64,000 bases of DNA from Bacillota bacterium (GTDB taxonomy: Bacteria > Bacillota > Dehalobacteriia > UBA7702). This document shows positions 25,397 through 54,064 of this stretch, piece by piece. The stretch lies in assembly GCA_963928475.1 (NCBI GenBank), contig CAWVFN010000061.1, positions 7,208 through 71,207 of the forward strand. Reading direction: 5' to 3'. The stretch's first letter is position 1. Each line of letters begins with the position of its first letter. The notes under the pieces are model-generated. The model saw only the letters and a list, made by a program, of their open reading frames with translations. It did not search any database and was not told the DNA's origin. A program made the translations under genes and the position numbers.

Positions 25397-25451
25397 AGTA
25401 TAACAATTTATCTATTAAAATAATTGATTTGATAAACAGGAGGAATTTTAA

Positions 25452-25736
25452 ATGACTAATATCGCATTAGGAATGATCGAAACCAAAGGTTTAGTTGGCT
25501 CCATTGAAGCGGCTGATGCCATGGTTAAAGCAGCGAACGTAACTTTGATTGGTAAAGTACATGTTGGCGGCGCTTATGTAACTGTTATGGTTCGTGGCGA
25601 TGTTGGCGCTGTTAAAGCCGCTACTGACGCTGGTGCCGCTGCTGCTCAGAGAGTCGGTGAACTCATTTCCGTACACGTAATTCCCAGACCCCATTCGGAA
25701 GTGGAATACATCTTGCCTAAACTCGGTGCTGAATAA
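25452..25736 (+). CDS. eutM: BMC-H hexameric shell protein (EutM/PduA type).
   Basis: 94 aa canonical BMC domain ([27 protein letters not shown]). Confidence 0.9.
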
Positions 25737-25768
25737 GATATCGATTTATTAGGTAAGGGGTTGAGATT

Positions 25769-26404: not shown

Positions 26405-26509
26405 GGCTTGTATAATTTAGCTTAATTTAGCATGAAAGTGCTAAGTTCTATTTAGTATACCTAATTTTGGTGTATGCGGAGATATTTTATACGAAAGGGG
26501 GACTAACTT

Positions 26510-27973: not shown

Positions 27974-27985
27974 GGGGTGATTAGC

Positions 27986-28639: not shown

Positions 28640-28666
28640 CTAATGAAAATATGTCATAAATAAAAT

Positions 28667-28705
28667 GAGAGGGTATCTTATAGTAGTAAGATACCCTCTT
28701 TAATT
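28667..28705. terminator. Hairpin GAGAGGGTATCTTA-N6-TAAGATACCCTCT followed by TTTAATT, between convergent genes.
   Basis: Perfect 13-bp stem. Confidence 0.65.
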
Positions 28706-28751
28706 ATGTTAAAATTATAATTTTTTTGATTCAAAGGTTGTTTTATTTTAT

Positions 28752-29738: not shown

Positions 29739-29763
29739 GTTCTTATCTCCTCTTTATAAACTA

Positions 29764-31137
29764 TTAAATGCGGGGGAGAGAAGCAAAACCTTTCTCAAGA
29801 TCCTCATCAGTGGGTACAAAATCCTGCATTTCACCATTATTATAGGACATATAAGCTGTCATGTCAAAGTAACCTGTACCGGTAAGTCCGAAAACAATTT
29901 TTTTCTTTTCTCCGGTTTCTTTACATTTTATGGCTTCATCCATAGCTACCTTAATAGCGTGGCTGGATTCTGGCGCCGGCAAAGTTCCTTCGCAGCGAGC
30001 GAAGGTAGTAGCGGCTTCAAAGACTTCGCTTTGTTTAACGGAAACAGCGCTCATATAGCCATCGTGATAGAGTTTGGATACTATAGGACTCATGCCATGA
30101 TAGCGTAAGCCGCCGGCATGATTAGGAGAGGGCATAAAACCGCTGCCTAAAGTATACATTTTCATAAGTGGCGTTGTTTTTCCTGTATCGCCGAAATCCA
30201 GGGCATATTTGCCTCTGGTTAGGGAAGGACAGGAGGCCGGTTCAACAGCGATAAATTCAATATTATTTTTACCTTCTATTTTATCTGCCATATAGGGTGA
30301 GATAAGACCGCCTAAATTGGAACCGCCGCCGGCACAGCCGATGATAATATCAGGTTCCACGTCATATTTTTCTAAAGCTGTTTTTAACTCGATTCCGATA
30401 ATGGATTGATGTAATATTACATGGTTAAGTACACTGCCTAAAACATAGCGGCAGTTATCGGTTTTTAAAGCTGTTTCCATAGCTTCGGAAATGGCGCAGC
30501 CTAAGGAGCCGCCGGTTTCGGGATTTTCCGCTAAGATTTTTCTGCCTGCTTCTGTGGTATCCGAGGGGGAAGGGATAACTTTACCGCCGTAGGTTTCAAT
30601 AACAGCTTTACGATAAGGTTTTTGCTGGGCGGAAACTTTTACCATATAGACGGTGAGATCTATACCATAAAAAGCGCAGGCCATAGCTAAAGCCGTGCCC
30701 CATTGTCCGGCTCCTGTTTCAGTGGTCAGGGATGTTAATCCTTGTTCTTTAGCGTAATAGACCTGAGCGGCGGCGGAATTTAATTTATGAGAGCCGGAGG
30801 TATTATTTCCCTCAAACTTATAATAAATTTCCGCTGGCGTATCTAAGATTCGTTCTAAGTTATAGGCTCTGGTTACTGGGGAGGGACGATACATTTTATA
30901 GAAATTCTGTATTTCCTCGGGGATTTCTATATAGCGGTCATCGTTATTTAATTCCTGTTCTATAAGAGCGTCGCAAAATACTGGTTTTAGATCCTGTGCT
31001 GTACAAGCTTTGCCAGTGGCGGGATTAATAAAGGGTTCTGGTTTTTCTTTCATTGCCGCTCTGACGTTAAACCAGCTTGTAGGCATCTCGTTTTCTTCTA
31101 AAAATATTTTGTAGGGTACTTTTGTCATCTTTTTCAT
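29764..31137 (-). CDS. TrpB2-type tryptophan synthase beta-like PLP enzyme.
   Basis: PLP lysine region FEGNNTSGSHKLN and the GGGSN glycine loop, about 450 aa. Start ATG 31137 after AAAGAAAGG; the ORF-track start is further upstream. Confidence 0.75.
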   Translation of the reverse strand: MKKMTKVPYKIFLEENEMPTSWFNVRAAMKEKPEPFINPATGKACTAQDLKPVFCDALIEQELNNDDRYIEIPEEIQNFYKMYRPSPVTRAYNLERILDTPAEIYYKFEGNNTSGSHKLNSAAAQVYYAKEQGLTSLTTETGAGQWGTALAMACAFYGIDLTVYMVKVSAQQKPYRKAVIETYGGKVIPSPSDTTEAGRKILAENPETGGSLGCAISEAMETALKTDNCRYVLGSVLNHVILHQSIIGIELKTALEKYDVEPDIIIGCAGGGSNLGGLISPYMADKIEGKNNIEFIAVEPASCPSLTRGKYALDFGDTGKTTPLMKMYTLGSGFMPSPNHAGGLRYHGMSPIVSKLYHDGYMSAVSVKQSEVFEAATTFARCEGTLPAPESSHAIKVAMDEAIKCKETGEKKKIVFGLTGTGYFDMTAYMSYNNGEMQDFVPTDEDLEKGFASLPRI

Positions 31138-31189
31138 CCTTTCTTTGGGTTGCTTTCCCAATGTAAATTTTTTAGTACCTGTCATGGTA

Positions 31190-31500
31190 TAGAAGATTTC
31201 GGGATAAAAGCGGCAAATAAAAAAATCTTTGTCCTTCTAAGGGACAAAGACTATATCTCTGCGGTACCACCCAAATTGCCTTTTACGGCCTCTTCTTTCA
31301 TATACCATCATATATGCCGCCTTGATAACGGGCACGGTTCCCGTCAGCGCCTACTTCCTTTTGGTTTCGGGCTGCCCTCGAAAGTCCATTCACCGATACC
31401 ACGCATATCCCACTTCCAGCAACGGGGACTCTCTGTTTGCGCTTTTGTGACGGTTACTACTCTTTCTCATCAGTTTAAGCATTTAATTGTTAAACATGAT
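31190..31500 (-). promoter_or_regulatory. T-box riboswitch leader (probable Trp specifier UGG) with a terminator hairpin, upstream of trpB2.
   Basis: Minus-strand read shows the conserved T-box AAUUUGGGUGGUACCGCAG (forward 31260-31278) and the terminator UCUUUGUCCCUUAGAAGGACAAAGA plus U7. Also present: a UGAUGA...AGAGUAG Stem-I GA/AGVGA motif, GCUGGA (UGG then A) in a specifier-like position, and a GCCCGUUA F-box. Sigma-70 promoter TTGACA-N17-TATCAT at 31496-31524. Confidence 0.7.
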
Positions 31501-31787
31501 ACCCTTATTTTTTATTTTTGTCAAGAGGTAATAAAAATTTTTTTTATTTCCGGTTATGGTTTTGTATTATTCATCATAGAATAGGGTTTGATTGTTATTT
31601 TTCCATTGTGATCATAGAATCAGTTTATACTGGCAGTTTAGCAATAGAGCCTTTTAAAAGGCAGTAGTCTGACAAGGACTTTGCCTTTGTCTGTAGAATT
31701 AATAAAGATAGAATTATAATAGCAAAACACGGGTGATATTTTTCAATAGTTTAGGTTAGTTGCTGGTCTTGGAGGTCATATAAAGCA

Positions 31788-32465
31788 ATGATTTTAGAAA
31801 AGAAGTCTTCATATTTGAATTTAAAAAATATTAAGTTAGATGAGAACCAAGAAAAGGTTTTTGGTTCCTTACAGGAGTATTTAGAAATGTGTCATTTGTA
31901 CAGAGCCGCCATGAGTGAACTCGGTACGAAATTAGAAAATTTAGATGAAGAATTTCATATTTGTTATGATCGCAATCCCATACATCACATGGAATCGCGT
32001 TTAAAGTCTCCACAAAGTATCATCAATAAACTTGAAAAGAAGGGCCGGGAGATAAGTTTAGCCTCAGCCAAAAAAAATATTACGGATATAGCTGGTATAA
32101 GGGTCATATGTTATTATATTCAGGATATTTATTCCTTAGTTGATCTTTTAGTAGCCAGAGGCGATATTTGTCTGATAGGTAAAGCTGACTATATAGAGGC
32201 GCCTAAGGCTACAGGCTACCGCAGTGTACATTTAGATGTTTCTGTACCTGTTTGTATGGCAGGCAAGACAGAAGATGTGCCGGTGGAAATTCAGATACGC
32301 ACCATAGCCATGGATTTTTGGGCCAGTTTAGAGCATCAGCTGAGATATAAAGCCCCGGAAAAGGTTCCTGTTTTACTAAGGGCTCAGCTTAAGGACTGCG
32401 CTCAGACTATTGCTGATATAGACAGAAAAATGGAGGAAATATATTTGGAATTGAAAAATCTTTAA
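31788..32465 (+). CDS. Small alarmone synthetase (RelA/SpoT-domain (p)ppGpp synthetase, RelQ/RelP-like).
   Basis: Synthetase-domain motifs DIAGIRVICYY and RSVHLDV. 225 aa. Confidence 0.8.
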   Translation: MILEKKSSYLNLKNIKLDENQEKVFGSLQEYLEMCHLYRAAMSELGTKLENLDEEFHICYDRNPIHHMESRLKSPQSIINKLEKKGREISLASAKKNITDIAGIRVICYYIQDIYSLVDLLVARGDICLIGKADYIEAPKATGYRSVHLDVSVPVCMAGKTEDVPVEIQIRTIAMDFWASLEHQLRYKAPEKVPVLLRAQLKDCAQTIADIDRKMEEIYLELKNL

Positions 32466-32504
32466 GCGCCTTTGCTGCGGGGTAATTTGTTTAACGTCTC
32501 ATTA

Positions 32505-32545
32505 TTAGAGAGGATATGACATTAATGTCATATCCTCTTTTTTTA
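32505..32545 (+). terminator. Hairpin AGAGAGGATATGACATT/AATGTCATATCCTCT followed by a T7 run.
   Basis: Perfect 15-bp stem. Confidence 0.7.
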
Positions 32546-32713
32546 TTATTGGTTTTCTGTTGTTTTGTAATGATAGTCAAGGATTTAGGTCAGCGCTGTG
32601 GCTAAAATCTTAGTTTTATACAGTTAGCGGAGATATGACAGTATGCAGTGGGGGAACAGATAATAAGAAGATAAAAGCGAAAATAGTAAAGTAAGTTTTG
32701 CTGTCTGGGTTTA

Positions 32714-33613
32714 TTAGGAAAAAGCTGAGCTAAAGTCATCTTTAGCCAAATTGATAAAGGTTTTTAAGCGTGGTTGTCCCGCCAATTTTTTATAGTAGAC
32801 GCCATAAGATATGGGTTCCCCGTCCTTAATTGGTATACAAGCGAGACTTGGATCATGGATGGGGATATTTTTTGGTATAATCGCTGTGCCATACCCTCCT
32901 ATACTGAGTGTAACAGCGGTTTCTGCTGAGTCGCAGAGAAAAAAATCCAAAATAGACCTGTCTTCAATGGCTTGATGTTGTACCTGCCTTAAGGCATCGG
33001 GGCATTTCCAAGGTTCCATGACAATTAAAGTTTCTTTTTTTAATTCCTCCATCTGGACAGCGGACTTTTTAGCTAAAGGATGGTTAGCTGAAGTTACCGC
33101 CATTATCGGTATTTTGGCTAACTCGGCGTATTTAAAATATTTTTTTAAGCCTTTATCCTGGAAAGTCACGATCACATCTAAGCTTTCTTCCATTAACTGC
33201 TGATAGATATGTCGAAAAGGTATAACCTGAAATATTGGATAGATATCAGGAAATAGGTTGTGCATTTCTTGCAGTACCTGGGCAAATTGGCGGATTTCGT
33301 TATGGGCGTGACAGCCTATCACAAATTTTACTCTGGTATCTTCAAAGGAATCAGCTCCTCGTTTTTTAGCTCCTTCTAAAATTTGGATCACGTTTTTTGC
33401 GTCATTTATAAAAAAAAGACCAGCTCTGGTTAGTTCGACTGTCCTTGTTGTCCGATTGAATAATTTAAAGTTAAGTTCTGCCTCTAAGGAGCGTATTTGC
33501 TGAGTAACAGCTGGCTGGGTGATGTTTAACTGCTGAGCGGCTTTGGCAAAATTGAGAGTTTCGGCAACAGTTAAAAAACAAGTGAGCTGTGTCGTATTCA
33601 TAATATATACCAC
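32714..33613 (-). CDS. LysR-family transcriptional regulator.
   Basis: N-terminal HTH LNFAKAAQQLNITQPAVTQQIRSLE. 299 aa. Divergent from the ABC exporter genes. Confidence 0.85.
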   Translation of the reverse strand: MVYIMNTTQLTCFLTVAETLNFAKAAQQLNITQPAVTQQIRSLEAELNFKLFNRTTRTVELTRAGLFFINDAKNVIQILEGAKKRGADSFEDTRVKFVIGCHAHNEIRQFAQVLQEMHNLFPDIYPIFQVIPFRHIYQQLMEESLDVIVTFQDKGLKKYFKYAELAKIPIMAVTSANHPLAKKSAVQMEELKKETLIVMEPWKCPDALRQVQHQAIEDRSILDFFLCDSAETAVTLSIGGYGTAIIPKNIPIHDPSLACIPIKDGEPISYGVYYKKLAGQPRLKTFINLAKDDFSSAFS

Positions 33614-34077
33614 CTATATATTAATAATAATTATTTATTAATTATAACATATTCTAAATTCACTTTCAACGCTAAATACCTTATCATATTTATAGGGGAT
33701 TATATTATTATACCTCTAATAGATATATTTTAATAAGTGGCTATTTATATTTTTAAGCAACCATTATAGCTGTAAAGGCAAACTACTTATGCTCTGCCTT
33801 TACTGAGGATATTATTGGAGAAAACTCATCTTCACCTTTGGGGATTCTAAGATAGCTTTTTCTTGTTAAGGCTATCAGGGAAATCTATTTTTATTAACGT
33901 CAGAAAGTGCGGTTTAAGTAAATTTCTGTTTAAGGGAAGAAGGGTGAGAAATTTATTAGCTTAGTCTCAATGCTTGTTAGTTCATTGTTTTACTCTATTT
34001 TTTTGAGGCTGTGAGAGGAGTGATTTTCAGAGATATTGTAATGATTTAAATTGTAAATAAGGAGCTTAGTTATTGCT

Positions 34078-35838
34078 ATGTTAAGACTACTTAGATATTT
34101 AAAGGATTATAAAAAGAATGCGGTTTTAACTCCGCTTTTAGTCATATTTGAAACAGTGGGTGAATTATTGTTAACTTTGACTATAGGTCGTTTTATTGAT
34201 GAGTTAGCTAATTCCAGCGCCAATATGACTATGATTTGCCGTTATGGCCTTGTATTATTGGTTATAGCCTTATTTTGTTTTGTCTTTGGCACTCTTTCTG
34301 GCTGGGAATCGGTTAAAGCTGCGGCTGGTTTAGCGAAAAACTTGCGTAATAAGATGTTTGGTCAAATTCAAGATTTTTCCTTTACCAATATAGATAAATT
34401 TTCCGCCAACAGCTTGGTAACCCGTATGACTACCGATGTTACCAATTTACAAAACGCCTTTATGATGACGTTACGAGTAGCGGCCAAATCACCGGTTTCC
34501 ATAATTTGCGCCTTAATAATGGCTTTTCACACAAATTGGCGTTTAGGGCTTATTTATATTGTTTTAATTCCCTGTTTATTTATAGGTCTCATTATCATTG
34601 CCAGATTGACCTACCCAATTTTTCAGCGGGTGTTCAGAACCTATGACCGTTTAAACGGTATAGTAAGGGAAAATTTGCATGGTATTCGTGTTGTTAAGGG
34701 CTTTGTCCGTGAAGACTATGAGTCTGTAAAATTTGAAAATGTTTCTGGTGAAATCAGAAAGGATTTCACCAAAGCTGAGACTTTAATAGCCTTTAACCCT
34801 TTTATGATGCAATTTTCCATATACCTTTCCCTAATTTTGATTGCCTGGTTTTCCGCTAAAGCCATTGTTGGTTCAGCTAACGGCACTGTGGTTACTGGTA
34901 TAGCCATGACCACAGGCGAGCTGCAGAATATGATTACCTATTCCATGATGATCTTGATGTCTCTGATGATGTTATCCTTAATTTATGTGATGATGATGAT
35001 GTCACGTGAATCAGTACATAGGATTAAGGAAGTATTGGCGGAAGAACCTAATATTAAGGCCCCGGAACAAGGTTTAAGGGAAGTAAGAGATGGTGAGATC
35101 ATTTTTAATAACATAGGATTTAGTTATAGCGGAGACGCTCATAAGCTTTGTTTAAGTGATATTAACTTACATATTGCTTCCGGTGAGACTATTGGCATTA
35201 TTGGTGGTACCGGTTCAGGTAAAACCTCATTAATTCAGTTAATCCCCAGACTTTATGACGTAACATTAGGCAGTATAAAAGTAGGCGGTAGAGATATAAG
35301 GGATTATGATTTGACCTCTCTGCGTAAGGCTGTAGCTGTTGTACCCCAAAAGAATCTTCTTTTTGCCGACACGATAAAGGAAAATTTGCGCTGGGGTAAA
35401 GCCGATGCTACTGACGAGGAGATAGTTGCCGTTTGCAAGCAGGCTCAAGCTCATGATTTTATCAGCGCCTTTCCAGATGGCTATGATACTTACATTGAGC
35501 AAGGCGGTACAAATGTTTCTGGAGGTCAGAAACAGAGGCTGTGTATCGCCAGGGCCTTACTTAAGGAGCCTAAGGTTTTAATTTTGGATGATTCGACCAG
35601 CGCTGTTGATACTAAGACCGATGCCTTAATACGTCAAGCTTTTCGTTCTTATATTCCGGAGACCACAAAAATTATTATTGCCCAGAGAGTTTCTTCGGTA
35701 CAGGATGCAGATAGAATCATTGTTATGTCGGGCGGCAGGATCAGCGCGGTAGGCAAACATGATGAGCTTCTGGCCTCCAGTGATATTTATCGGGAAGTTT
35801 ATGAATCCCAGTTGAAAGGAGGCGGTACAGATGAGTAA
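34078..35838 (+). CDS. ABC exporter, fused permease-ATPase (heterodimer partner 1).
   Basis: Six TM helices followed by Walker A GGTGSGKTS, signature LSGGQKQR and Walker B ILDDSTSAVD. Confidence 0.85.
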   Translation: MLRLLRYLKDYKKNAVLTPLLVIFETVGELLLTLTIGRFIDELANSSANMTMICRYGLVLLVIALFCFVFGTLSGWESVKAAAGLAKNLRNKMFGQIQDFSFTNIDKFSANSLVTRMTTDVTNLQNAFMMTLRVAAKSPVSIICALIMAFHTNWRLGLIYIVLIPCLFIGLIIIARLTYPIFQRVFRTYDRLNGIVRENLHGIRVVKGFVREDYESVKFENVSGEIRKDFTKAETLIAFNPFMMQFSIYLSLILIAWFSAKAIVGSANGTVVTGIAMTTGELQNMITYSMMILMSLMMLSLIYVMMMMSRESVHRIKEVLAEEPNIKAPEQGLREVRDGEIIFNNIGFSYSGDAHKLCLSDINLHIASGETIGIIGGTGSGKTSLIQLIPRLYDVTLGSIKVGGRDIRDYDLTSLRKAVAVVPQKNLLFADTIKENLRWGKADATDEEIVAVCKQAQAHDFISAFPDGYDTYIEQGGTNVSGGQKQRLCIARALLKEPKVLILDDSTSAVDTKTDALIRQAFRSYIPETTKIIIAQRVSSVQDADRIIVMSGGRISAVGKHDELLASSDIYREVYESQLKGGGTDE

Positions 35839-37693
35839 ATTACAAAAGGGAACAGTGGCTCGTTTGCTGTCATATATTACTAAGCGTCATAAAAAAGAGT
35901 TTACTTTTGTGGTATTGTGTATTCTCATCAGCGTAAGTGCCGCTATGATTGGCAGTCTTTTTATACAGATCATAATCGATGACTATATTTGGGGCATGCT
36001 GGAAACCGGTGAGAATATGTTTGATGGTCTTTTCTTTGTTTTAGTGCTTATGGCCATCGTTTATCTTTTGGGTGCCATTGGTACGTTGTTCTATAATAGG
36101 GTAATAGCTATAGTAGGTCAAAAAGTTTTAAAGGAGATAAGGGATGATCTGTTTATAAAAATGCAGACCCTGCCTTTAAGTTATTTTGATACCCATACCC
36201 ATGGTGATATCATGAGTGTATATACCAATGATACCGACACTTTGCGTCAGTTTATAGCGCAGAGTTTACCTATGATGATTTCTTCGTTAGTAACTATAGT
36301 TTTTTCTTTTTGTGTTATGATTTATTTCAATGTAGTGTTAGCGTTTATTGTTTTGCTTTTATCTCTTATTATGATTTTAACCGGCAGAGTTATGGTAAAA
36401 CACAGCGGTGCTTATTTTACCAAGCAGCAGTCATCCATGGGCAAAGTTGACGGTTATATTGAAGAGATATTTAGCGGTCTTAAGGTGGTAAAGATATTCT
36501 GTCATGAGGATGCGGCAAAAGAGAGATTAGGAGAGCTTAATAGCGAATTATATGATAATTCTTTGATGGCCGGCGGTATTTCCATGGTAATGATGCCGGT
36601 AATGTCGGCCTTTGGTAATTTGCAATACTTGATTGTTGCCGTGGTCGGCGGCGGCATGGCTTTATTTGGCACTGGTATTGTTACCACAACCATAGGTACT
36701 TTGATATCTTTTTTAAGTTTGGTACGTCAGTTTTCCACCTCCATTACCCAAACAGCTCAACAGATGAACAGTGCTGTTTTAGGTATTGCCGGAGCCGGCC
36801 GGATTTTTGAGTTAATGGACAATGAGTCAGAAAAGGATAATGGTTATGTAACATTAGTACGGGTAAAAGAGGAAAAGGGCGAATTAAGAGAATGCAGCCA
36901 TGGCGGCATATACGCCTGGAAAGAGACGGGTGATGATGGCTCTGTAACCTATACCCAGCTGCAGGGAAATGTGGTTTTTGACCATGTTAATTTCAGTTAT
37001 GACGGCAGAAAAACAGTGCTCCATGATATTTCTCTTTACGCCAAACCTGGTCAGAAAATAGCTTTAGTTGGTGCTACCGGTGCTGGTAAAACTACGATCA
37101 CGAATTTGATTAACCGTTTTTATGACTTATCCGAGGGAACAATAACTTATGATGGTATTGATATTACCAAGATTAAAAAGGCGGATTTACGCAGATCCCT
37201 GGGTATTGTTTTGCAGGATGTAAATCTTTTTACCGGCACTATCCTGGATAATATCCGTTATGGCCGTTTAGAAGCCACCGATGAAGAGTGTATAGCGGCG
37301 GCAAAATTATCTGGGGCTGATGATTTTATAAGGCGTCTTCCTCAAGGTTATCAAACTGTTATTGTAGGTGATAACAATAATCTTTCTCAGGGTCAGTGTC
37401 AGCTTCTTTCCATTGCCCGGGCAGCTGTGGCCGATCCTCCTGTTATGATTTTGGATGAAGCCACTTCCTCCATTGATACCAGGACAGAAGAGTTGGTACA
37501 AAAAGGCATGGATAGGCTGATGCAGGGGAGAACCGTATTTGTTATTGCCCACAGATTATCGACAGTCAGAAATTCTCAAGCCATCATGGTCTTGTCATAT
37601 GGTGAAATTATTGAACGAGGCAGCCATGAGCAGTTACTTGCGGCCAAGGGACAGTACTATCAGCTCTATACCGGTGCTTTTGAATTGGAGTAA
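35831..37693 (+). CDS. ABC exporter, fused permease-ATPase (heterodimer partner 2).
   Basis: TM domain followed by Walker A GATGAGKTT and a degenerate signature LSQGQCQL. Overlaps the upstream gene by 8 bp. Confidence 0.85.
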   Translation: MSKLQKGTVARLLSYITKRHKKEFTFVVLCILISVSAAMIGSLFIQIIIDDYIWGMLETGENMFDGLFFVLVLMAIVYLLGAIGTLFYNRVIAIVGQKVLKEIRDDLFIKMQTLPLSYFDTHTHGDIMSVYTNDTDTLRQFIAQSLPMMISSLVTIVFSFCVMIYFNVVLAFIVLLLSLIMILTGRVMVKHSGAYFTKQQSSMGKVDGYIEEIFSGLKVVKIFCHEDAAKERLGELNSELYDNSLMAGGISMVMMPVMSAFGNLQYLIVAVVGGGMALFGTGIVTTTIGTLISFLSLVRQFSTSITQTAQQMNSAVLGIAGAGRIFELMDNESEKDNGYVTLVRVKEEKGELRECSHGGIYAWKETGDDGSVTYTQLQGNVVFDHVNFSYDGRKTVLHDISLYAKPGQKIALVGATGAGKTTITNLINRFYDLSEGTITYDGIDITKIKKADLRRSLGIVLQDVNLFTGTILDNIRYGRLEATDEECIAAAKLSGADDFIRRLPQGYQTVIVGDNNNLSQGQCQLLSIARAAVADPPVMILDEATSSIDTRTEELVQKGMDRLMQGRTVFVIAHRLSTVRNSQAIMVLSYGEIIERGSHEQLLAAKGQYYQLYTGAFELE

Positions 37694-37837
37694 CAATATT
37701 TAGCAGCTGCCTGTCAAAGCTGATATAATTTTTAGTCTTGGCAAGAAGGAGGTATTTCCCTCCTCTGGCTTTAGTCTATGAGCATCGACTGGGCTTGATA
37801 TGAGGTAAACAGCAGAATGCCTCGACTTTAACCCAAG

Positions 37838-37880
37838 TAAAAACAGCCTGTCCTTAATAACGGCAGGCTGTTTATGTATT
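37838..37880. terminator. Hairpin AAACAGCCTGTCC-N7-GGCAGGCTGTTT between the ABC operon and the convergent typA.
   Basis: 12-bp stem with one mismatch, followed by a T-rich tail. Confidence 0.5.
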
Positions 37881-37940
37881 ATTTGCTTATTGAATAAATT
37901 TTTTCTCCAACCACTTTAGTGGCTGAATCTGTATAGATCA

Positions 37941-39770
37941 TTATTGATTATTCTTGTTGTGTTTCTGGGCTTTAGCTCTTTGAGCGTGATCCAAAATCCG
38001 TTTTCTGATTCGGAAATTTTCTGGTGTAACCTCTAAAAGCTCATCGTCATTCATAGCTTCCAAGGCTTCTTCCAAACTTAAACGCAGAGGCGGCGATAGG
38101 CGCAAAGCCTCATCACTGCCGGCTGCCCTGGTATTGGTAGCCTGCTTCTTTTTACAGACATTGACGGTGATATCCTCTGTTTTGGGAGAGAATCCTACTA
38201 CCATCCCAGCGTAGACCTTTTCTCCGGGTCCGATAAGGAGAGCTCCTCTTTCCTGGGCATTGTAAAGGCCGTAAGTAATACTTTCCCCTGTTTCGAAGGC
38301 AATAAGGGAACCATTGCTTCTTTTCATAATATCGCCTTTATAAGGTCCATAATTAGCGAATACGGCGTTTAATATACCTTCTCCTCTGGTATTAGTCAGG
38401 AATTCACTGCGGTAGCCGAAAAGTCCCCGGCTGGGAATGATAAATTCCATTTTTATTCTGGAACCCTGGGGCTGCATACCTCGTAGTTCCCCTTTGCGTG
38501 TACCCATACTTTCCATAACAGTACCCATATATTCCTCGGGCACGTCAATTACCAGTTCCTCGTAGGGTTCCAGTTTTTTATCATTGACGGTTTTATACAG
38601 TACTTTAGGGGTGCTGACTTGGAACTCATAGCCTTCTCTGCGCATATTTTCAATGAGTATAGACAGGTGCATTTCCCCGCGTCCCATCACCCGAAAGCTC
38701 TCGGAGCTTTCTGTTTCATCCACATGTAGTGATACATCTTTCAATAATTCCCTAAAGAGCCTGTCCCTTAGTTGACGGGATGTGACATATTTCCCTTCCT
38801 GACCGGCAAAGGGACTGTCATTAACGGAGAAAGTCATTTCTACTGTTGGTTCGGAGATTTTAACAAAGGGCAGAGCTTCCACTAAATCTGGAGAACAAAC
38901 AGTATTGCCTATATTTACCCCTTCAATGCCGGAAAAGGAAACAATATCGCCGGCCTTAGCCATATCTACCGGTACTTTATCAAGTCCCTCGATTTGATAG
39001 ACAGCTGTTATTTTTGCTTTAGTGGCGGCGTTTTCGTTAAAATAGTCGCAGACAGATACTTCCTGGTTTTGATGGATTGTACCCCGTTCTATACGGCCTA
39101 TAGCTATACGTCCTACATACTCATTGTAGTCAATAGAGGATACTAAAACCTGCAGGGGAGCATCAGGCTCTCCCTCTGGCGGATCAATATAATCCAAGAT
39201 AGTGTCAAAAAGAGGAGTCAGATCTTTGCCGGGCTTTTCATAATCAAAGGTAGCCGTACCTTCTCTGCCAGAACAGTAAATAAAGGGACTATCAAGTTGT
39301 TCCTCACTGGCACCGAGATCCATAAGTAATTCTAAAACCTCGTCTTCTACTTCTTCAATACGGCGGTCTGGGCGATCGATTTTATTGATAAGGACGATTA
39401 CTTTATGATCGAGATCCAGGGCTTTCTGTAAAACAAAGCGAGTTTGGGGCATAGGTCCCTCTGAGGCGTCTACTAAAAGGACAACGCCGTTTACCATTTT
39501 TAAGACTCGTTCCACTTCACCGCCGAAATCGGCGTGTCCTGGTGTATCTACGATATTGATTTTGACATCCTTATAATGAACAGAGGTATTTTTTGAGAGA
39601 ATAGTTATACCTCTTTCCCTTTCTAAATCATTGGAATCCATGACTCTTTCCTGAACCACCTGATTTTTTCTAAAGGTACCGCTTTGGCTCAGCATATGGT
39701 CAACTAAGGTGGTTTTGCCATGGTCAACATGGGCTATGATGGCTATATTACGTAAATCTTCTCGTTTCAA
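37941..39770 (-). CDS. typA: Translational GTPase TypA/BipA.
   Basis: [20 protein letters not shown]1 motif and the EF-G-like domain order. 609 aa. Confidence 0.9.
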
Positions 39771-39911
39771 GGTAAAACCTCCAATAATAAGAATATATCT
39801 ATTATTTTTCGCAAAAACATATTATACACCAAAAAGAGACAAAAGACAAGATAACGCTGTATATCTTTTCAAGTCATAATTTACCTTGAAGATTTATTGT
39901 GACAGGGGAAA

Positions 39912-39945
39912 TAAAAAAAGCCCCGTTTACGGGGCTTTTTGATTT
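39912..39945 (-). terminator. Terminator AAAAAGCCCCG-ttta-CGGGGCTTTTT after the second eutBC operon.
   Basis: Perfect 11-bp stem with flanking A/T runs, immediately downstream of the eutC2 stop. Confidence 0.75.
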
Positions 39946-39954
39946 GAGTTGATT

Positions 39955-40842
39955 TTAAAGCACCAAATCCAGACCACTGGTTTTTTGAGTAATGATTTTT
40001 TCCACTAGGCTGGCGATTTGAGCACCGGCTTCTACCGGCGGAATACCGCCCTTGTGGATATTAGAGATCATGGTGCGCTGAGCTTCTACTGTTTCCATGG
40101 TAGGATGATAGGTAAGATAGGCGCTCATGCTTTCAGCTGTGCCTAAACCTGGTCTTTCACCGATAAGTAAAAGAATCAATTCAGGTTTCAGAATCTCGCC
40201 GATACAGTTAACTATACCCACACGAGCATTCTTAACAAAAATATCCTTACCTAAGTTATAGCCTAAATTTTGTAAACCTTGCTTGCAAACGGTGAGAACG
40301 TCTTGGATATTGGCGTCTATGGCTTTGGCGCTCAAACCGTCACCGACAACGATTTGTACCTGCGCTCCCTGGGGAGCTTCCTGTTTCAATTTGGCAATAC
40401 TGTCATCAGAGAGTACGCGTCCCAGGTCAGGTCTGGTCAAAAATTCATCTTTATCAGCTACTTTTGATTCTAATTGGAGGAATCCCATAGAATCTAAAAT
40501 ACCTTGATCTACATGGCTGAGAACAGCATCTTGAGCAACGCCGTGGTCGGCCCGGAATTTTAACATAGTTTTAGTCAACGGACGGGTACCTGTGCGCCAT
40601 ACGCCGATACGGGCAGAGGTGCTTTGCATCATATCTTCATAGGCGGCTCTGTTTTGGGGATTAGGAACCATCAGAGGATTGCCGAACTGGGATATATCAG
40701 GTACTTCACCGGTAGATACTACGGAAGGAGTGGCGCTGACGGTATTATTAGCCGGAGCGGAAGGAGCGGCGGGAGCCACACCGTTGGAGTTTAACTGCTG
40801 GATAACAGATTGTACTAAATTCTGGATTTCTTGATTATTCAT
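39955..40842 (-). CDS. Ethanolamine ammonia-lyase small subunit, second (divergent) copy, with an N-terminal amphipathic helix and an A/P-rich linker.
   Basis: RIGVWRTGTR and ERPGLG motifs. N-terminus QEIQNLVQSVIQQL. About 50% identity to copy 1. Confidence 0.85.
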   Translation of the reverse strand: MNNQEIQNLVQSVIQQLNSNGVAPAAPSAPANNTVSATPSVVSTGEVPDISQFGNPLMVPNPQNRAAYEDMMQSTSARIGVWRTGTRPLTKTMLKFRADHGVAQDAVLSHVDQGILDSMGFLQLESKVADKDEFLTRPDLGRVLSDDSIAKLKQEAPQGAQVQIVVGDGLSAKAIDANIQDVLTVCKQGLQNLGYNLGKDIFVKNARVGIVNCIGEILKPELILLLIGERPGLGTAESMSAYLTYHPTMETVEAQRTMISNIHKGGIPPVEAGAQIASLVEKIITQKTSGLDLVL

Positions 40843-40854
40843 TTTCTTGCCTCC

Positions 40855-42216
40855 TTACATCAATACCGAAGCGTCGCCCGCTAATTTGGTGAGGCGGCCG
40901 TTTTCCATTAAGCCGAGTTTTTCCATCCAGGCCTCAAATTCAGCCAAAGGACGGGTTTTAGATATGGCTCTTAAAGAAGCTATATCATGATAGCTGGTGC
41001 TCTGATAGTTCAACATAATATCGTCGCCCATAGGCACGCCCATGAAATAGTTGCAGCCAGCGGTAGTAAGGAGAACAGCCAAGTCTTCCAAGTCATTTTG
41101 GTCGGCTTTCATGTGATTGGTATAGCAAACATCAACGCCCATAGGTACACCGGTAAGTTTGCCCATAAAGTGGTCTTCTAAGCCGGCTCTGGTAACTTGT
41201 TTGCTGTCATAGAGATATTCAGGTCCGATAAAGCCTACAACAGTGTTGACGAGGAAAGGTTGATATCTTTTAGCAAAGCCGTAGCAACGCGCTTCCAGAG
41301 TTACCTGATCGGCGCCGCCGTGGGCTTCTGAGGATAATTCAGAACCTTGTCCAGTTTCAAAGTACATAATATTAGGACCTTCACTGCTGTTATATTTAAG
41401 TCCCATTTCTCTGGCTTCCGCCAGTATTTTACCATCTATGCCAAAGGCGGTATTGGCTGCTTCAGTCCCGGCAATACTTTGGAATATGCAGCCGGTACGG
41501 GCGCCGTCCTCAATAGCTTTCATTTGGGTGGTGACGTGGGAGAGTACGCAGATTTGAGTTGGTATTTCCCATTTATCAACAAATTCATTTACAGCGTCAA
41601 GCAGTCTTTTAGTGCCGACTTGATTGTCCTCAACGGGGTTAATACCGATAACCGCATCACCAATACCGTAGGTGAGACCGCTTCTCATTGAGGCCAGGAT
41701 GCCGTTTACATCATCGGTGGGGTGGTTGGGCTGTAAGCGAACAGCCAGTCGTCCTTCTTCCCCGATGGTGGTATGGCAATGGGCAGTAACCCTTAATTTT
41801 TGTGCGGCCAGTATCAAGTCAATATTGGACATGATTTTGGCGGCGGCGGCTACCATTTCACTGGTGAGACCGCGGCTTAGTCTTCTTAGGTCAGCGCCGG
41901 TAACCTCATCGGAGAGTATATATTCTCTTAACGCTTCCACTGTCCAGTTTTTGATCTCATTATAAATTGTAAGATTGAGATCGTCCTGAATAATCCTGGT
42001 AACTTCATCTTCTTCATAGGGAATAACAGGGTTATTACGCAAATCTTCCAGAGTGAGCTCGGAAAGCACGGCTTTGGCCGCTACTCTTTCGGCTACGCTG
42101 TGAGCCGCCACTTCTGCCAAGATATCGCCGGATTTTTCTTCGTTAGCTTTTGCCAAGACGTCTTTCACGTCGCGGAACTGGTAAGAATTGCCAAATAATT
42201 TTGTGCTTAATCGCAT
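40855..42216 (-). CDS. Ethanolamine ammonia-lyase large subunit, second (divergent) copy.
   Basis: MRLSTKLFGNSYQFRDVKDVLAKANEEKSGD... is collinear with EutB and roughly 65% identical to copy 1. Confidence 0.9.
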   Translation of the reverse strand: MRLSTKLFGNSYQFRDVKDVLAKANEEKSGDILAEVAAHSVAERVAAKAVLSELTLEDLRNNPVIPYEEDEVTRIIQDDLNLTIYNEIKNWTVEALREYILSDEVTGADLRRLSRGLTSEMVAAAAKIMSNIDLILAAQKLRVTAHCHTTIGEEGRLAVRLQPNHPTDDVNGILASMRSGLTYGIGDAVIGINPVEDNQVGTKRLLDAVNEFVDKWEIPTQICVLSHVTTQMKAIEDGARTGCIFQSIAGTEAANTAFGIDGKILAEAREMGLKYNSSEGPNIMYFETGQGSELSSEAHGGADQVTLEARCYGFAKRYQPFLVNTVVGFIGPEYLYDSKQVTRAGLEDHFMGKLTGVPMGVDVCYTNHMKADQNDLEDLAVLLTTAGCNYFMGVPMGDDIMLNYQSTSYHDIASLRAISKTRPLAEFEAWMEKLGLMENGRLTKLAGDASVLM

Positions 42217-42479
42217 CTCTCCACCTCATTTTTCTGTAAAGATTGAACTAAATTGTTTGTTCTTCTTTTTATCTATATTATTGTTCTACTCAAGAAGGAC
42301 AATTCCTTTTATATTATAGTGTTTTTTTGCTAAAAAGGCAATATCCTATAGGTTATTTTCTTGAAAAAGGTGGAATTTTATGTTCCGAAAAGTCATGGTA
42401 TTTCTTGACAAAGAAAAAATGATATTTTAAAATGCTTTTATGCCATGTAAGTTTTTATATTAGGAGAGGAGATAGGCTA

Positions 42480-43223
42480 ATGAAAAAAATAGCAGCGCTT
42501 TTATTGCTTTGTTTTTGCGCTTTTTGTTTCTGCGCCTGTGTGGCTTCGGATTTAGAGGATAAAGGTACTGATTTCGCTGAAGCCGTGTTTGCCAGGGATT
42601 ACGACAGAGCCGCTGAGCAAATGACGGAAAATATGGTTATAAATATGAGTGAGGATGTTATGACGGAATTAGCTGACGCGGCAGAGGATCAGTTTGGCGC
42701 TTTTGATTCTGTGTCTTCGGTAACTATAGGCAGTGATCCAGATTATCCTGACCATACTATAGCCAAGGTAAAGGTAAAGTTGGCGGATAGCTATATAATT
42801 ATGGAGTTAGCCTATAATGAGTCTCAGCAGGTAGATGGTATTAATATTTTGGCTACCGAGGAAATGGCTGGTGCCAGTGGTACAGAAGAAGCCAACAGTG
42901 GTGCATCGGTGAACAGTACGCCTACTGCCTCAGATCGTGGAACCGCTGCCAAAGCTTTTTTAACAGCTGTCTTTAGTGGAGATATGGAAACAGCCACGGC
43001 GTATTTAGGTGAGGATACGCAAAGTGACAGTGCTGTTACATCTATCGCGGCCATGGTTACTGAGGCTGAGTCGAATTACGGTGCTTATGAAGAAATAGGC
43101 GCTGTAAACGATAGTGGTGATACAGTTTTAGTCAATGTGTTATTTACTGACGGCTCGTCTATGTTTGAGATAAGCTTTGATGATAATAATAAAATAGTAG
43201 GTTTTTCCATCTATGCCCAATAA
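42480..43223 (+). CDS. Lipoprotein with two internal repeats of about 100 aa (DUF3887/DUF4878-like).
   Basis: Signal peptide plus lipobox (LLLCFCAFCFCAC). SD AGGAGAGGAG upstream of ATG 42480; the ORF-track start is further upstream. Confidence 0.5.
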   Translation: MKKIAALLLLCFCAFCFCACVASDLEDKGTDFAEAVFARDYDRAAEQMTENMVINMSEDVMTELADAAEDQFGAFDSVSSVTIGSDPDYPDHTIAKVKVKLADSYIIMELAYNESQQVDGINILATEEMAGASGTEEANSGASVNSTPTASDRGTAAKAFLTAVFSGDMETATAYLGEDTQSDSAVTSIAAMVTEAESNYGAYEEIGAVNDSGDTVLVNVLFTDGSSMFEISFDDNNKIVGFSIYAQ

Positions 43224-43245
43224 GTTATAAAGAAAAAGAAAGAAG

Positions 43246-44094
43246 ATGATACTATTGCCGGGCTTAGTTTTGGAGGGTGGTGGTTTCCGGGGTGTTTTCA
43301 CTCAAGGAGTACTTGACGCTCTTTTAGATCATGGGATTATGTTTCCTTATGTTGTTGGTGTATCTGCCGGTATCAGTAATGGTTTTTCCTATGTCAATGG
43401 TCAAAGAGGCAGGAACTGGGAGATAGCTGAAAAGTATTATAATGATAAGCGATATTATGGTTATGGTAATTACTTAAAAAATAAGTCTGTATTTGGCTTG
43501 GAGTTTATGTTTGAAACCGTACCTAATGAGCTTATACCCTACGATTACGAGGCCTTAAGAGATTACCAGGGAACAGCTCTTATCGGAGTTACCCATGGTG
43601 TAAGCGGTGAGGCTCGGTTTTTCACCCAGGATCCTGATGATAAAACTAATTTATTGCTTAGGGCCACCTGTTCAATTCCTTTTTTCTTCCCGCCGGTAAA
43701 AATTGATGGCGAAGATTATTTTGACGGTGGTGTGGCGGATCCCATTCCCATAGAGAAGTCCATAGCTGACGGTAATGAAAAAAATTTGATTGTGCTGACA
43801 CAGCCTGTTGGTTATAGAAAAACTCTTTCCCGCACCAATGTCCGGGGTGCTAAGATTTTGAAAAAGCAGTATCCTGGTATTGCTAAAGTAATGCTGGAGC
43901 GTCATGAGATATATAACCGACAGCTGGACTATTGTGGAAAACTGGCCAAAAGCGACAATACGGTAGTGCTTTATCCTAAGAAAGCCACTGTTGTCAGTCG
44001 TTTTGAGCGCAATGTCAAGAAGCTGCGTTTACTATATGAAGACGGATATGTGGCTGCGGAGTCCAATATGACAGCGATAAAGAATTTGTTTTAA
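43246..44094 (+). CDS. Patatin-like phospholipase.
   Basis: Oxyanion GGGFRG and nucleophile GVSAG motifs, plus a DGG catalytic Asp. 282 aa. Confidence 0.8.
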   Translation: MILLPGLVLEGGGFRGVFTQGVLDALLDHGIMFPYVVGVSAGISNGFSYVNGQRGRNWEIAEKYYNDKRYYGYGNYLKNKSVFGLEFMFETVPNELIPYDYEALRDYQGTALIGVTHGVSGEARFFTQDPDDKTNLLLRATCSIPFFFPPVKIDGEDYFDGGVADPIPIEKSIADGNEKNLIVLTQPVGYRKTLSRTNVRGAKILKKQYPGIAKVMLERHEIYNRQLDYCGKLAKSDNTVVLYPKKATVVSRFERNVKKLRLLYEDGYVAAESNMTAIKNLF

Positions 44095-44268
44095 GAGAGA
44101 GCGGGGATTTTTCCCCGCTGTTTTATGCGATTTTTTAGTCAATATGGTGTCATATTTAAGTAAATTTGTTATATTTATATAAAATCTCTGGTACAGTCTG
44201 CCAATGTGTGCTATAATATTGCTCAGTGAAATAAGACTTGGAGTTGGAATTTTCGGGGAGATGTGTAA

Positions 44269-46053
44269 ATGAAGAAACTGTTATTTTTAATGAGCTTATG
44301 TCTGACAATAATTGTTTTCGCCTTACCCCTTGGGGTTGTTGCCGCTGAGGATAATGGCGGCGGACCCTGGGTAATTAAAATAAAGGACAGTGTCAGTTCT
44401 TTTTCGGCTTTGTCCGGTACAATCAATGGCATAGATGAGGAAGATTCTCTTGAGTACGAAAAAATAGGTGACTCTTTATACTGTGTTACTGATGATTACG
44501 AAGCTGCTCAGGCTTTAGCTGACAGCGGTGTAGCGGAATATGTGGAAGAAACTACTTATAGTTATCTTTCCTATGTTCCTAATGATAGATTATACGCGCC
44601 TTCTGGCAGTGGTTCTTCCGCCAGCAGTTATCAGTACGCTCTCAAGTTGCTTAACGCTGAGCAAGGCTGGGATATAACTCGGGGTAGTAATGATGTACGT
44701 ATAGTAGTTATTGACAGTGGTTTTGATTACAGTCATGAAGACGGCGCTAATATTAAGGCAGGTTACGACTATATTGATAACAGGACCAATACCTATGATT
44801 ATTCCTGGCACGGTACTGCCTGCGCTGGTATTATAGGAGCCACTACAGGCAACAGTCTGGGAATAGCCGGTGCCGCCCCTAATTGTCAGGTATATATGCT
44901 TCGTTGTTTTGGTTTAAAAGATAACGAGCAGGGCGGTGATAACATGGCTATAGCAAAGGCCATCAGAGACGCGGTAGATGTCTATGACGCCGATGTCATA
45001 AGCATGAGCTTTGGTTCTCTTTATAATCCCACCTATTTATATGACGCTGTTAAGTATGCCTATGATAAAGGTGTGATAATGGTGGCGGCTACTGGCAATA
45101 CCGGTGCTGATTATGGCTATGCCAAGAATAAGCTGGAGTATCCAGCCGCCTATGATGAGGTAATAGGCGTGGCTTCCGTAGATTGGACTAAGGAAGCAGC
45201 GGCTACCTCCACAAAGAACAAATCCACCTATGTCTCAGCCCCTGGTTGTTCTATTTTGACCTTAGGCAACACCAAGAAATACGCTAACTATATATCCGCT
45301 GATGGTACATCCTTTGCTACTCCTTATGTAGCATCTTTGGCGGCTTTGGCCTTAAGTATTGATCCTTCTTTGACGCCGGATGATTTCCGTGTAGCTTTAC
45401 GGCATACCTCCGATGACAGGGGTGCTGCTGGCTATGACTATAGCTATGGTTATGGTATTGTGAATTATGGCGCTCTTTTAACCATGGTATCTGAGGGCAA
45501 ATTTTTAGATGTCCCAGAGGGCAAATGGTACAGTGAGGCTGTATATGATCTTAAGAGCTTAAATATTCTTAATGGCCGCAGTAAGTTTTATTTTGAGCCG
45601 GCCGGCACCATCAAACGCTGTGAATTCGCCACAATATTAGCGAAGATGTCAGGTGATGATTTATCTTCTTATAACAGCCAGAGTGGTTTCAGTGATATCA
45701 AGTCTACTGACTGGTTTGCCAATTATATGAACTGGGGTATATCTAAAGGCATAATTAAAGGTTATGGTGATGGTACTGCCAGGCCTAGCGCTTACATTAC
45801 CAGAGAAGAGATGTGCGTAATGTTTAACAGGTATATAGCGATGAAAGGTGTTGCTTTAACCGATAACGGCGCTGGTATGAACTTTAGCGATGTAGGCAAA
45901 ATCTCTGATTGGGCCTATGCTGATGTGGCTGAATTGGTCAGCGGCGGTATAATTGAAGGCAACGATGATAATACCTTTAATCCTTTGGGCAATTCTTCCC
46001 GGGCTGAGGTTGCGGTAATGATTGATAGATTTATCAAGGCTTACGGCAGCTGA
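44269..46053 (+). CDS. Secreted subtilisin-like S8 serine protease with three C-terminal SLH domains.
   Basis: Signal peptide; catalytic D (VIDSGFD), H (HGTACAG) and S (GTSFATPYVAS); three SLH-type repeats (FLDVPEGKWYSEAV..., FSDIKSTDWFANYM..., FSDVGKISDWAYADV...). Confidence 0.85.
   Translation: MKKLLFLMSLCLTIIVFALPLGVVAAEDNGGGPWVIKIKDSVSSFSALSGTINGIDEEDSLEYEKIGDSLYCVTDDYEAAQALADSGVAEYVEETTYSYLSYVPNDRLYAPSGSGSSASSYQYALKLLNAEQGWDITRGSNDVRIVVIDSGFDYSHEDGANIKAGYDYIDNRTNTYDYSWHGTACAGIIGATTGNSLGIAGAAPNCQVYMLRCFGLKDNEQGGDNMAIAKAIRDAVDVYDADVISMSFGSLYNPTYLYDAVKYAYDKGVIMVAATGNTGADYGYAKNKLEYPAAYDEVIGVASVDWTKEAAATSTKNKSTYVSAPGCSILTLGNTKKYANYISADGTSFATPYVASLAALALSIDPSLTPDDFRVALRHTSDDRGAAGYDYSYGYGIVNYGALLTMVSEGKFLDVPEGKWYSEAVYDLKSLNILNGRSKFYFEPAGTIKRCEFATILAKMSGDDLSSYNSQSGFSDIKSTDWFANYMNWGISKGIIKGYGDGTARPSAYITREEMCVMFNRYIAMKGVALTDNGAGMNFSDVGKISDWAYADVAELVSGGIIEGNDDNTFNPLGNSSRAEVAVMIDRFIKAYGS

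Positions 46054-52378: not shown

Positions 52379-54064
<1,686 letters not shown>

Follow-up and report, generated by a model that had tools for sequence, protein, structure and literature searches.

Satellite loci of bacterial microcompartments (BMCs) have been defined as distal loci with at least one shell protein gene, and include the "EUT module", a satellite of EutA, EutB, EutC and EutL that was proposed to add ethanolamine to other microcompartments (Sutter et al. 2021, PMC8217296). Duplicate eutBC genes have been described in Pelobacter carbinolicus, where one of them was suggested, as a suggestion only, to encode a choline trimethylamine-lyase (Aklujkar et al. 2012, PMC3543383). Here we describe a stretch of 64,000 nucleotides from a Bacillota bacterium (assembly GCA_963928475.1, contig CAWVFN010000061.1; the whole stretch is called the window below), in which one pair of ethanolamine ammonia-lyase genes, eutB1C1, lies inside a BMC operon and a second, orphan pair, eutB2C2, lies outside it. 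The two large subunits belong to different types of EutB: EutB2 is canonical (D-type), and EutB1 belongs to what is apparently an undescribed, old and monophyletic subfamily, called AP-type here after its Ala-Pro signature. The explanation that we favour, with reservations, is that the orphan pair is a canonical lyase serving the same organelle, and that the AP-type enzyme handles N-methylated ethanolamines derived from choline. By itself the orphan pair would be unremarkable but for its location; what makes it valuable is that it reveals a split in the EutB family.

The two pairs and the signals of the orphan pair are as follows:

14801-28639, plus strand: BMC operon of 16 genes
15668-17026, plus strand: eutB1, AP-type large subunit, 452 aa
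17036-17935, plus strand: eutC1, small subunit and partner of EutB1
17961-19439, plus strand: eutA (Pfam EutA, 581 bits)
40855-42216, minus strand: eutB2, canonical (D-type) EutB, 453 aa (Pfam EutB, 711 bits; cut-off 25)
39955-40842, minus strand: eutC2, small subunit, 295 aa (Pfam EutC, 274 bits; cut-off 25.8)
42313-42341, minus strand: sigma-70-like promoter of eutB2C2, TTGCCT-17-TATAAT
39915-39940, minus strand: intrinsic terminator of eutB2C2, 11-bp stem with 6 G-C pairs, 4-nt loop and T run

An earlier reading, made from the sequence alone, had reported a second eutBC pair outside the operon, and the open reading frames (ORFs) were found where it had placed them, on the minus strand and 11.3 kb from the end of the plus-strand operon (28639 to 39955). 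Both frames are intact and eutC2 starts 12 nt past eutB2, forming a two-gene unit. Both products also exceed the NCBIfam cut-offs (EutB2, 677 bits against 554; EutC2, 295 bits against 230). Family cut-offs, adjacency and the presence of all five substrate-binding residues identify the pair as EutBC at every sequence test, and we are highly confident that it is a functional canonical lyase.

EutB2 and EutB1 were found to be 62% identical and EutC2 and EutC1 45%, somewhat below the earlier estimates of about 65% and 50%. EutB2 is the closer of the two to the EutB of Listeria (2QEZ; 702 bits against 576 for EutB1) and of E. coli (3ABO; 601 against 525 bits). The substrate hydroxyl is reportedly bound by Glu287, Arg160 and Asn193, and the amino group is said to be bound by Glu287, Gln162 and Asp362 (E. 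coli numbering). Arg160, Gln162, Asn193 and Glu287 are present in both window proteins. EutB2, with the motif MGVDVCYTNH, also has Asp362 (codon 41131-41133, minus strand) and so keeps all five. EutB1 keeps four of the five; its motif reads MGIAPCYTNH, preceded by Pro, in which Asp362 is replaced by Ala and followed by Pro (Ala360-Pro361 of EutB1, encoded at 16745-16750). The active-site comparison that the sequence-only reading had proposed thus gives a difference at position 362, with the roles exchanged: the orphan had been taken for the divergent copy with a possibly new substrate, but the changes are in EutB1, and it is also EutB1 whose gene is associated with those for methylamine and choline metabolism.

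The Ala-Pro signature was found in all of the best 120 listed homologs of EutB1, which read MG[IL]APCYTNH; relatives with 68-96% identity occur in Desulfitibacter, Dehalobacterium, Zhaonella, Thermincola, Carboxydothermus, Desulfosporosinus and Sporomusa. Alignment of 216 sequences, comprising collected loci, the homolog list and E. coli, showed position 362 to be Asp in every D-type sequence (149 of 149) and Ala in every AP-type one (67 of 67, all with Pro at 363). Positions 160, 162, 193, 245-247, 285-290, 326, 329, 401 and 402 are invariant in both types, and residues 365-368 are constant in the AP-type and in all but one of the D-type. Further changes characterise the AP clade, namely V327S, Y334T, G345D, T325N, L322M, S296L and C311T, together with Gln at 376. 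A neighbour-joining tree was built with columns 362 and 363 masked and rooted at the midpoint. The 67 AP-type sequences formed one pure clade, separated by the root from all D-type sequences including E. coli, so that EutB1 and EutB2 lie on opposite sides of the deepest split, a depth that may be exaggerated by faster evolution in the AP clade. The old paralogy proposed by the sequence-only reading is upheld by this tree. Neither an Ala-Pro subfamily of EutB nor a EutB-family enzyme for methylated ethanolamines or choline was found in full-text searches of the literature, which covered few subscription journals; the one related item was the suggestion made for Pelobacter.

An AlphaFold model of EutB1 (mean predicted local distance difference test (pLDDT) score 88, pTM 0.90) superimposed on 3ABO chain A with a TM-score of 0.96. 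In the model, positions 322-327 form the barrel strand that precedes the one with 359-364, and the loop leaving this first strand holds position 334. The changes that mark the AP clade would accordingly be grouped at the active-site end of the barrel, on two neighbouring strands and one loop, an adjacency derived from secondary structure and TIM-barrel geometry rather than from coordinates. EutB1 is best regarded as a homolog with the same fold for which the substrate of EutBC should not be assumed. The loop PGGDDVMLSY (residues 393-402, encoded at 16844-16873), with the conserved Met and Leu that adjoin the substrate site, is the one part of the model where pLDDT falls below 50.

The BMC operon that carries eutB1C1 encodes, in order, EutS-like, EutP, EutB1, EutC1, EutA, EutL, adenosyltransferase, EutJ, EutN, PduS-like, BMC-T, EutQ, EutM, EutK-like, aldehyde dehydrogenase and PduL proteins, with both PduS- and PduT-like proteins represented. 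Its content fits an EUT2-type locus, with BMC-H, -P and -T shell proteins, EutA/B/C, an acylating aldehyde dehydrogenase and a phosphotransacylase, and the same gene order is found in Thermincola, Desulfitibacter and close relatives. EutV/EutW two-component control is usual in EUT2 loci, often with an adenosylcobalamin (AdoCbl) riboswitch, although this is not strict. Neither a response regulator nor a histidine kinase turned up in those window ORFs that were scanned, and no AdoCbl riboswitch in the window reached the Rfam thresholds. The adenosyltransferase (20171-21223, 350 aa) and EutQ (24356-25396, 346 aa) both carry long N-terminal extensions with no Pfam match; across L165-L174 their lengths vary from 313 to 375 aa and from 314 to 356 aa, respectively.

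Upstream of this operon lies an island of methylamine- and choline-related genes. In Eubacterium limosum, the APH-related kinase MthK and the MttB-family protein MthB demethylate choline via phosphocholine, demethylation stopping at dimethylaminoethanol, and co-localised homologs have been noted in Desulfitibacter, Sporomusa malonica and Ca. Formimonas (Jiang et al. 2025, PMC12155760). Choline is demethylated stepwise to ethanolamine by Methanococcoides, and is converted by Ca. Formimonas to acetate and monomethylamine, for which its authors proposed a route via glycine betaine. The island of the window comprises the following:

3942-5465, plus strand: PAS-domain sigma-54 activator (Pfam Sigma54_activat, 225 bits, plus PAS domains)
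5610-5625, plus strand: weaker sigma-54-like element with two mismatches, TGGTATGGTATTTGCA, preceding the pyrrolysine mttB
5659-7170, plus strand: mttB, pyrrolysine trimethylamine methyltransferase, two MTTB ORFs in one frame with an in-frame UAG at 6655-6657
7385-8353, minus strand: choline/ethanolamine kinase family protein (Pfam Choline_kinase, 82 bits)
8460-8475, minus strand: sigma-54-type promoter preceding the choline kinase gene
8700-8715, plus strand: sigma-54-type promoter preceding the APH-family kinase gene
8745-10067, plus strand: APH-family kinase (Pfam APH, 63 bits; weak homoserine-kinase similarity)
10272-11393, plus strand: polytopic membrane protein, probable transporter, with nine hydrophobic segments and no Pfam match
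12021-12036, plus strand: perfect sigma-54-type promoter, TGGCACGTTTTTTGCA, preceding the non-pyrrolysine MttB-family gene
12123-13586, plus strand: non-pyrrolysine MttB-family methyltransferase, MthB-like (Pfam MTTB, 249 bits, full length)
13903-14541, plus strand: HAD-family phosphatase (Pfam HAD_2), between the methyltransferase gene and the BMC operon
14677-14692, plus strand: sigma-54-type promoter, TGGCATGAAAATTGCA, preceding the BMC operon

The mttB gene combines a full-length MTTB homolog, a single in-frame UAG and a pyrrolysine insertion element (Rfam PYLIS_3, 62.8 bits against a cut-off of 38), which together identify it as a pyrrolysine MttB. The amber codon and this element make decoding of pyrrolysine by the organism probable; the window holds no genes for pyl biosynthesis, and ARAGORN found no tRNA genes in it. 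The APH kinase is the positional counterpart of MthK, and an APH gene adjoins MTTB in L088, L089, L176 and L178. The membrane protein sits where relatives have an EamA gene (e.g. L175). The MthB-like protein is 64% identical to a Sporomusa malonica protein from an operon of APH, MTTB, corrinoid and pterin genes, with a HAD gene nearby, and the HAD gene occupies the same position in L085, L087 and L175 and lies nearby in L176 and L178. A PHP-domain gene opens the island upstream of the sigma-54 activator, and about 800 bp upstream of it, where G+C falls to 0.32 at the left edge of the window, a large serine recombinase is encoded (863-2308, plus strand).

The five transcription units of the island are covered by four sigma-54-type promoters that depart from the consensus at no more than one position, and by the weaker fifth. 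The pattern occurs six times in the window against 2.0 matches expected by chance, and of these six, four have the right position and orientation in the island. The PAS-domain activator is likely the regulator of the island, and control of the BMC operon appears to run through it; the same activator family is also found beside AP-type operons in L081, L083, L175, L176 and L177.

The association of AP-type operons with methyltransferase genes was then followed across loci. In the AP sub-clade nearest the window, an MttB-family gene lies within 10 kb in all ten distinct contexts (the window, L085, L087, L175, L083/L084, L177, L081, L176, L088 and L089). The MttB gene is split by an in-frame stop in six of them (the window, L085, L087, L175, L083 and L177), the Rfam PYLIS search having been run on the window only; in L081 an MttB fragment at the locus edge lies beside a PylS-like gene. 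Most of the ten contexts also contain an APH or choline kinase, a HAD protein and a PAS sigma-54 activator. Members of these families lie beside the AP-type operons of Sporomusa acidovorans, Thermincola potens and four metagenome contigs, and a Desulfitibacter genome has a layout identical to the island of the window. In Desulfosporosinus orientis the flank carries APH, MTTB, two corrinoid proteins, a pterin-binding methyltransferase and HAD, and in Carboxydothermus ferrireducens (L177) it carries PylC, PylD, a corrinoid protein and pyrrolysine MttB. Over all loci, a methyltransferase together with a kinase was found within 10 kb of 6 of 30 AP-type and 1 of 123 D-type genes (Fisher p = 2e-4), a test that is conservative and is biased by the way loci were gathered and by incomplete loci, so that the per-clade description was relied on instead. 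Cultured organisms with the same island include Thermincola potens, Desulfosporosinus orientis and Sporomusa acidovorans.

The two EutB types were also repeatedly found together. Nine loci encode a tandem EutA-EutB[D]-EutB[AP]-EutL arrangement (L014, L061, L080, L093, L098, L099, L100, L102 and L110). Six tandem loci were inspected, five of which had one EutC and the sixth, L061 on a short contig, two EutC fragments. Two large subunits with one common small subunit suggest that the difference lies in the substrate-binding subunit. In L090, L091, L101, L048 and L069 both types occur at separate places in one BMC operon, and in Sporomusa acidovorans each type has a complete BMC locus of its own. 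In L177 a D-type eutBC pair (6704-9038), with an EutB 74% identical to EutB2, heads the AP-type operon, which may represent the ancestral position of the orphan pair; this D-type pair stands directly after a sigma-54 activator and the pyrrolysine mttB. The persistent co-occurrence of D- and AP-type enzymes argues against redundancy.

This co-occurrence bears on the possibility that both pairs act on the same substrate, the AP-type site being rewired but equivalent and the two differing only in kinetics, cofactor handling or regulation. The proteins of both pairs pass the same Pfam and NCBIfam models, so that annotation hides the family split, and the residues of the radical chemistry are identical apart from 362. 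AP-type genes also occur in classical ethanolamine operons that have no methylamine genes, and the new Asp345, present in 85% of AP-type sequences, could compensate for the loss. The residue lost, however, is the amine binder, which none of the 149 D-type sequences has changed; single genomes retain both types, often in one operon and with one EutC in five of the six tandem loci inspected; and the window-like sub-clade is tied to trimethylamine and phosphocholine methyltransferase genes in 10 of 10 contexts. A common substrate is thus considered unlikely.

For the AP-type enzyme, our working proposal is that the substrate is a different, N-methylated one, an assignment drawn from sequence and gene context to which we give an even chance. 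It is suggested because the sigma-54 regulon to which the operon belongs also includes the pyrrolysine mttB, the transporter gene, two kinase genes and those for the MthB-like methyltransferase and the phosphatase. Dimethylaminoethanol, N-methylethanolamine or choline would be cleaved by the AP-type enzyme to a methylamine and acetaldehyde, the change of Asp to Ala at 362 removing a hydrogen-bond acceptor and opening space. Two routes can be envisaged. In one, choline would be cleaved directly and the trimethylamine used by the adjacent pyrrolysine MttB. In the other, the kinase, MthB-like demethylation and HAD dephosphorylation would yield dimethylaminoethanol or N-methylethanolamine, on which the lyase would then act. 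The fully demethylated product, or free ethanolamine, would be cleaved by the orphan D-type enzyme. More generally, it is conceivable, although we put it somewhat below even, that AP-type EutBC are B12-dependent lyases for choline, dimethylaminoethanol or N-methylethanolamine that release tri-, di- or monomethylamine and acetaldehyde within the microcompartment, many such organelles being dual-lyase compartments in which the D-type handles ethanolamine. Both substrate assignments are read from sequence and gene context.

Several observations weigh against this proposal. Two other AP sub-clades lie in classical ethanolamine operons with no methyltransferase neighbours, and one D-type operon (L017) has a pyrrolysine mttB and a choline kinase gene in its vicinity; the link to choline is accordingly confined to the window-like sub-clade. 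The argument presupposes that Asp362 binds the amine. A compensating residue such as that introduced by G345D could restore ethanolamine binding in the AP-type. The E. limosum MthB was not among the best 120 matches to the MthB-like methyltransferase, and the window has no gene for a corrinoid protein, a pterin-binding protein or a methyl-tetrahydrofolate methyltransferase. Finally, the promoter type of the orphan pair differs from that of the shell genes, so that their co-expression is not assured.

The orphan pair has its own signals. A strong ribosome-binding site, GAGGTGGAGAG, lies immediately 5' of the eutB2 ATG, and when the upstream region was aligned across eight genomes only the ribosome-binding site and a promoter-like AGGA...TAGAAT motif were kept. 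The terminator-like hairpin begins 15 nt beyond the eutC2 stop, in agreement with the earlier claim of a separate terminator, and eutB2C2 would be transcribed as its own two-gene unit from the sigma-70-type promoter. The different regulation proposed earlier finds support in this promoter, as against the sigma-54-type promoter of the operon. The sequence-only reading was also correct that the pair has no adjoining shell gene, eutA or sigma-54 signal: around the pair no shell gene, eutA, transporter or -24/-12 element was found, there was no sigma-54-type element before eutB2, and no BMC-domain ORF occurred in 28640-46053. A permissive Rfam scan of 39700-42700 returned only generic sub-threshold matches, on the terminator hairpin. 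Leader-RNA control of eutB2 was considered and rejected, both Rfam matches at gathering thresholds (T-box and PYLIS) lying elsewhere in the window.

Orthologs of EutB2 with 82-88% identity were found in seven gut genome bins from chicken, rumen and human (L001-L007). The pair has kept its neighbours there, with an S8 protease gene on one side beside those for the DUF3887 protein and the patatin-like phospholipase, and on the other typA, the gene next after the orphan pair, which has its own promoter-like site. In three of the seven (L003-L005) the 3' end of a BMC operon of the same type lies about 2.3 kb past typA, convergent with the orphan pair; in the window the corresponding interval is about 9 kb (28752-37693) and carries extra genes. 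These encode an ABC substrate-binding protein and a pyridoxal phosphate (PLP) enzyme whose gene follows a T-box leader, together with a LysR regulator, a small protein of the RelA/SpoT family and the products of two ABC exporter genes, and the closer relatives L166, L169 and L170 have intermediate versions of the interval. The T-box leader (31237-31479, minus strand; 94.9 bits against a cut-off of 93) lies upstream of the PALP-family PLP enzyme (29764-31185) and the ABC substrate-binding protein. Divergent from eutB2, the DUF3887 protein, with a hydrophobic N-terminus, and the patatin-like phospholipase are encoded at 42432-44094 (plus strand), a neighbourhood kept in L001 and L002; phospholipid breakdown by the latter is possibly linked to ethanolamine supply. 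Further along, at 52379-54064 (minus strand), lies a gene for a collagen-repeat protein with a BclA C-terminal domain, which accounts for a local rise in G+C to 0.54 and suggests a spore former with an exosporium.

Synonymous sites of eutB2 and eutC2 were saturated (pS 0.70-0.79), and dN was 0.08-0.14 for eutB2; where it could be computed, the ratio of non-synonymous to synonymous rates (dN/dS) was about 0.05 for eutB2 and 0.09 for eutC2, indicating strong purifying selection. The reading frames are unbroken in eight lineages, and the G+C of the pair (0.47) is not anomalous beside that of the BMC operon (0.44-0.46). Recent horizontal acquisition, which the earlier reading had raised, is ruled out by the synteny in seven genomes, the saturated dS and the ordinary G+C. 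We hold it very improbable that the orphan pair has no function, whether as the relic of a classical EUT2 operon since lost or as a recent arrival. Sporomusa and Desulfosporosinus do have a complete second BMC locus around their D-type enzyme, neighbours that the window pair has not; intact frames in eight lineages, low dN/dS with saturated dS, the conserved position beside typA and the ordinary G+C speak for a maintained function. Loss of a surrounding operon may well be the true history, yet it implies no loss of function.

Whether the orphan enzyme works inside the microcompartment was considered from the N-terminus of EutC2, in which the first 17 residues form a predicted amphipathic helix resembling the targeting signal of Salmonella EutC:

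40792-40833, minus strand: putative encapsulation peptide of EutC2, eutC2 codons 4-17, QEIQNLVQSVIQQL, followed by a Pro/Ala/Ser-rich linker

The helix motif NNQ[DE]IQxIVxSV is kept in 7 of 7 EutC2 orthologs (L001-L007) and the adjoining linker drifts, so that EutC2 has both the terminal amphipathic helix and the poorly conserved linker of an encapsulation peptide. The corresponding putative helix of EutC1 spans residues 12-25 (17069-17110). Hydrophobic moments of 0.54 and 0.60 were obtained for the two EutC N-terminal helices, the latter for EutC2 residues 4-17, confirming the amphipathic character that had been ascribed to both; residues 4-17 of Salmonella EutC give 0.61. In the Carboxydothermus locus both EutC proteins likewise have similar N-terminal helices. 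The helix would deliver the orphan lyase into the only microcompartment of the window, where it would share the EutA reactivase, adenosyltransferase, aldehyde dehydrogenase and PduL of the operon. No second EutA was found in the window, and the single eutA is presumably common to both lyases.

The alternative is a free cytosolic lyase that scavenges ethanolamine nitrogen independently of the microcompartment, as the pair's own sigma-70-like promoter and terminator, and its distance from any shell gene, eutA or transporter, would allow. Lyases outside BMCs are common, with 39 of 646 gut genomes in one survey (Ravcheev et al. 2019, PMC6620236), and short EutA-EutB-EutC loci were present in the metagenome set (L118-L147). 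Against this, the EutC2 helix has been kept in seven orthologs while its linker drifted, and the EutA of the operon would still be needed. EutB2 also groups with EutB proteins of Firmicutes BMC operons, apart from the short-locus clade. When one genome per species was scanned, its relatives outside its own clade (67-74% identical) were nearly all in classical Firmicutes ethanolamine microcompartment operons, to whose EutB proteins EutB1 is about 59-60% identical, and the closest of them (74%, L177) lies inside a BMC operon. We therefore regard a cytosolic role as rather improbable, and the orphan lyase as probably cargo of the microcompartment; we infer its encapsulation and its use of EutA from these features.

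If the favoured explanation is correct, anaerobes would have a B12-dependent means of completing choline degradation past dimethylaminoethanol, the endpoint of the only characterised pathway. Gut and sediment anaerobes would then have a source of methylamines other than CutC, which bears on estimates of trimethylamine in the gut. It would also provide a clear case of one microcompartment with two signature enzymes for different substrates.

Compared with the EutBC of E. coli, Salmonella and Listeria, EutB2C2 is alike in its two-subunit organisation, full-length homology, five binding residues and EutC N-terminal helix, and unlike them in standing apart from eutA and all shell genes. EutB1 has the same fold and differs by Ala-Pro at 362-363, V327S, Y334T and T325N. 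The operon shares with Firmicutes EUT2 loci the shell set EutS, L, M, N and K-like, together with PduL, EutA, EutJ, EutP, EutQ and an aldehyde dehydrogenase with a C-terminal helix; it differs in its AP-type lyase, its PduS- and PduT-like genes and the lack of a detected EutVW or AdoCbl riboswitch. EUT modules likewise place a signature lyase away from a main locus, but they include a shell protein and EutA, and the window pair has neither; having no shell gene, it falls outside the satellite-locus definition of Sutter et al. 2021.

Two lyase paralogs per genome are also a feature of Pelobacter carbinolicus, in which, unlike here, the genes are fusions of large and small subunits, are 70% identical to each other, and have been described with neither eutA nor a microcompartment context. 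Were the AP-type enzyme to act on choline, whole or partly demethylated, the overall encapsulated reaction, to a methylamine and acetaldehyde, would be that of CutC and its microcompartment; CutC is a glycyl radical enzyme unrelated to AP-type EutB in sequence and cofactor, and no gene for it was found in the window. With the MthK/MthB/MthC/MthA system of E. limosum the window has in common the arrangement of kinase, transporter and MttB-family genes, and it differs from it in having no local corrinoid protein gene. No lyase or microcompartment has been described for the E. limosum mth cluster, to which the window adds a phosphatase, a pyrrolysine MttB and a microcompartment with the AP-type enzyme.

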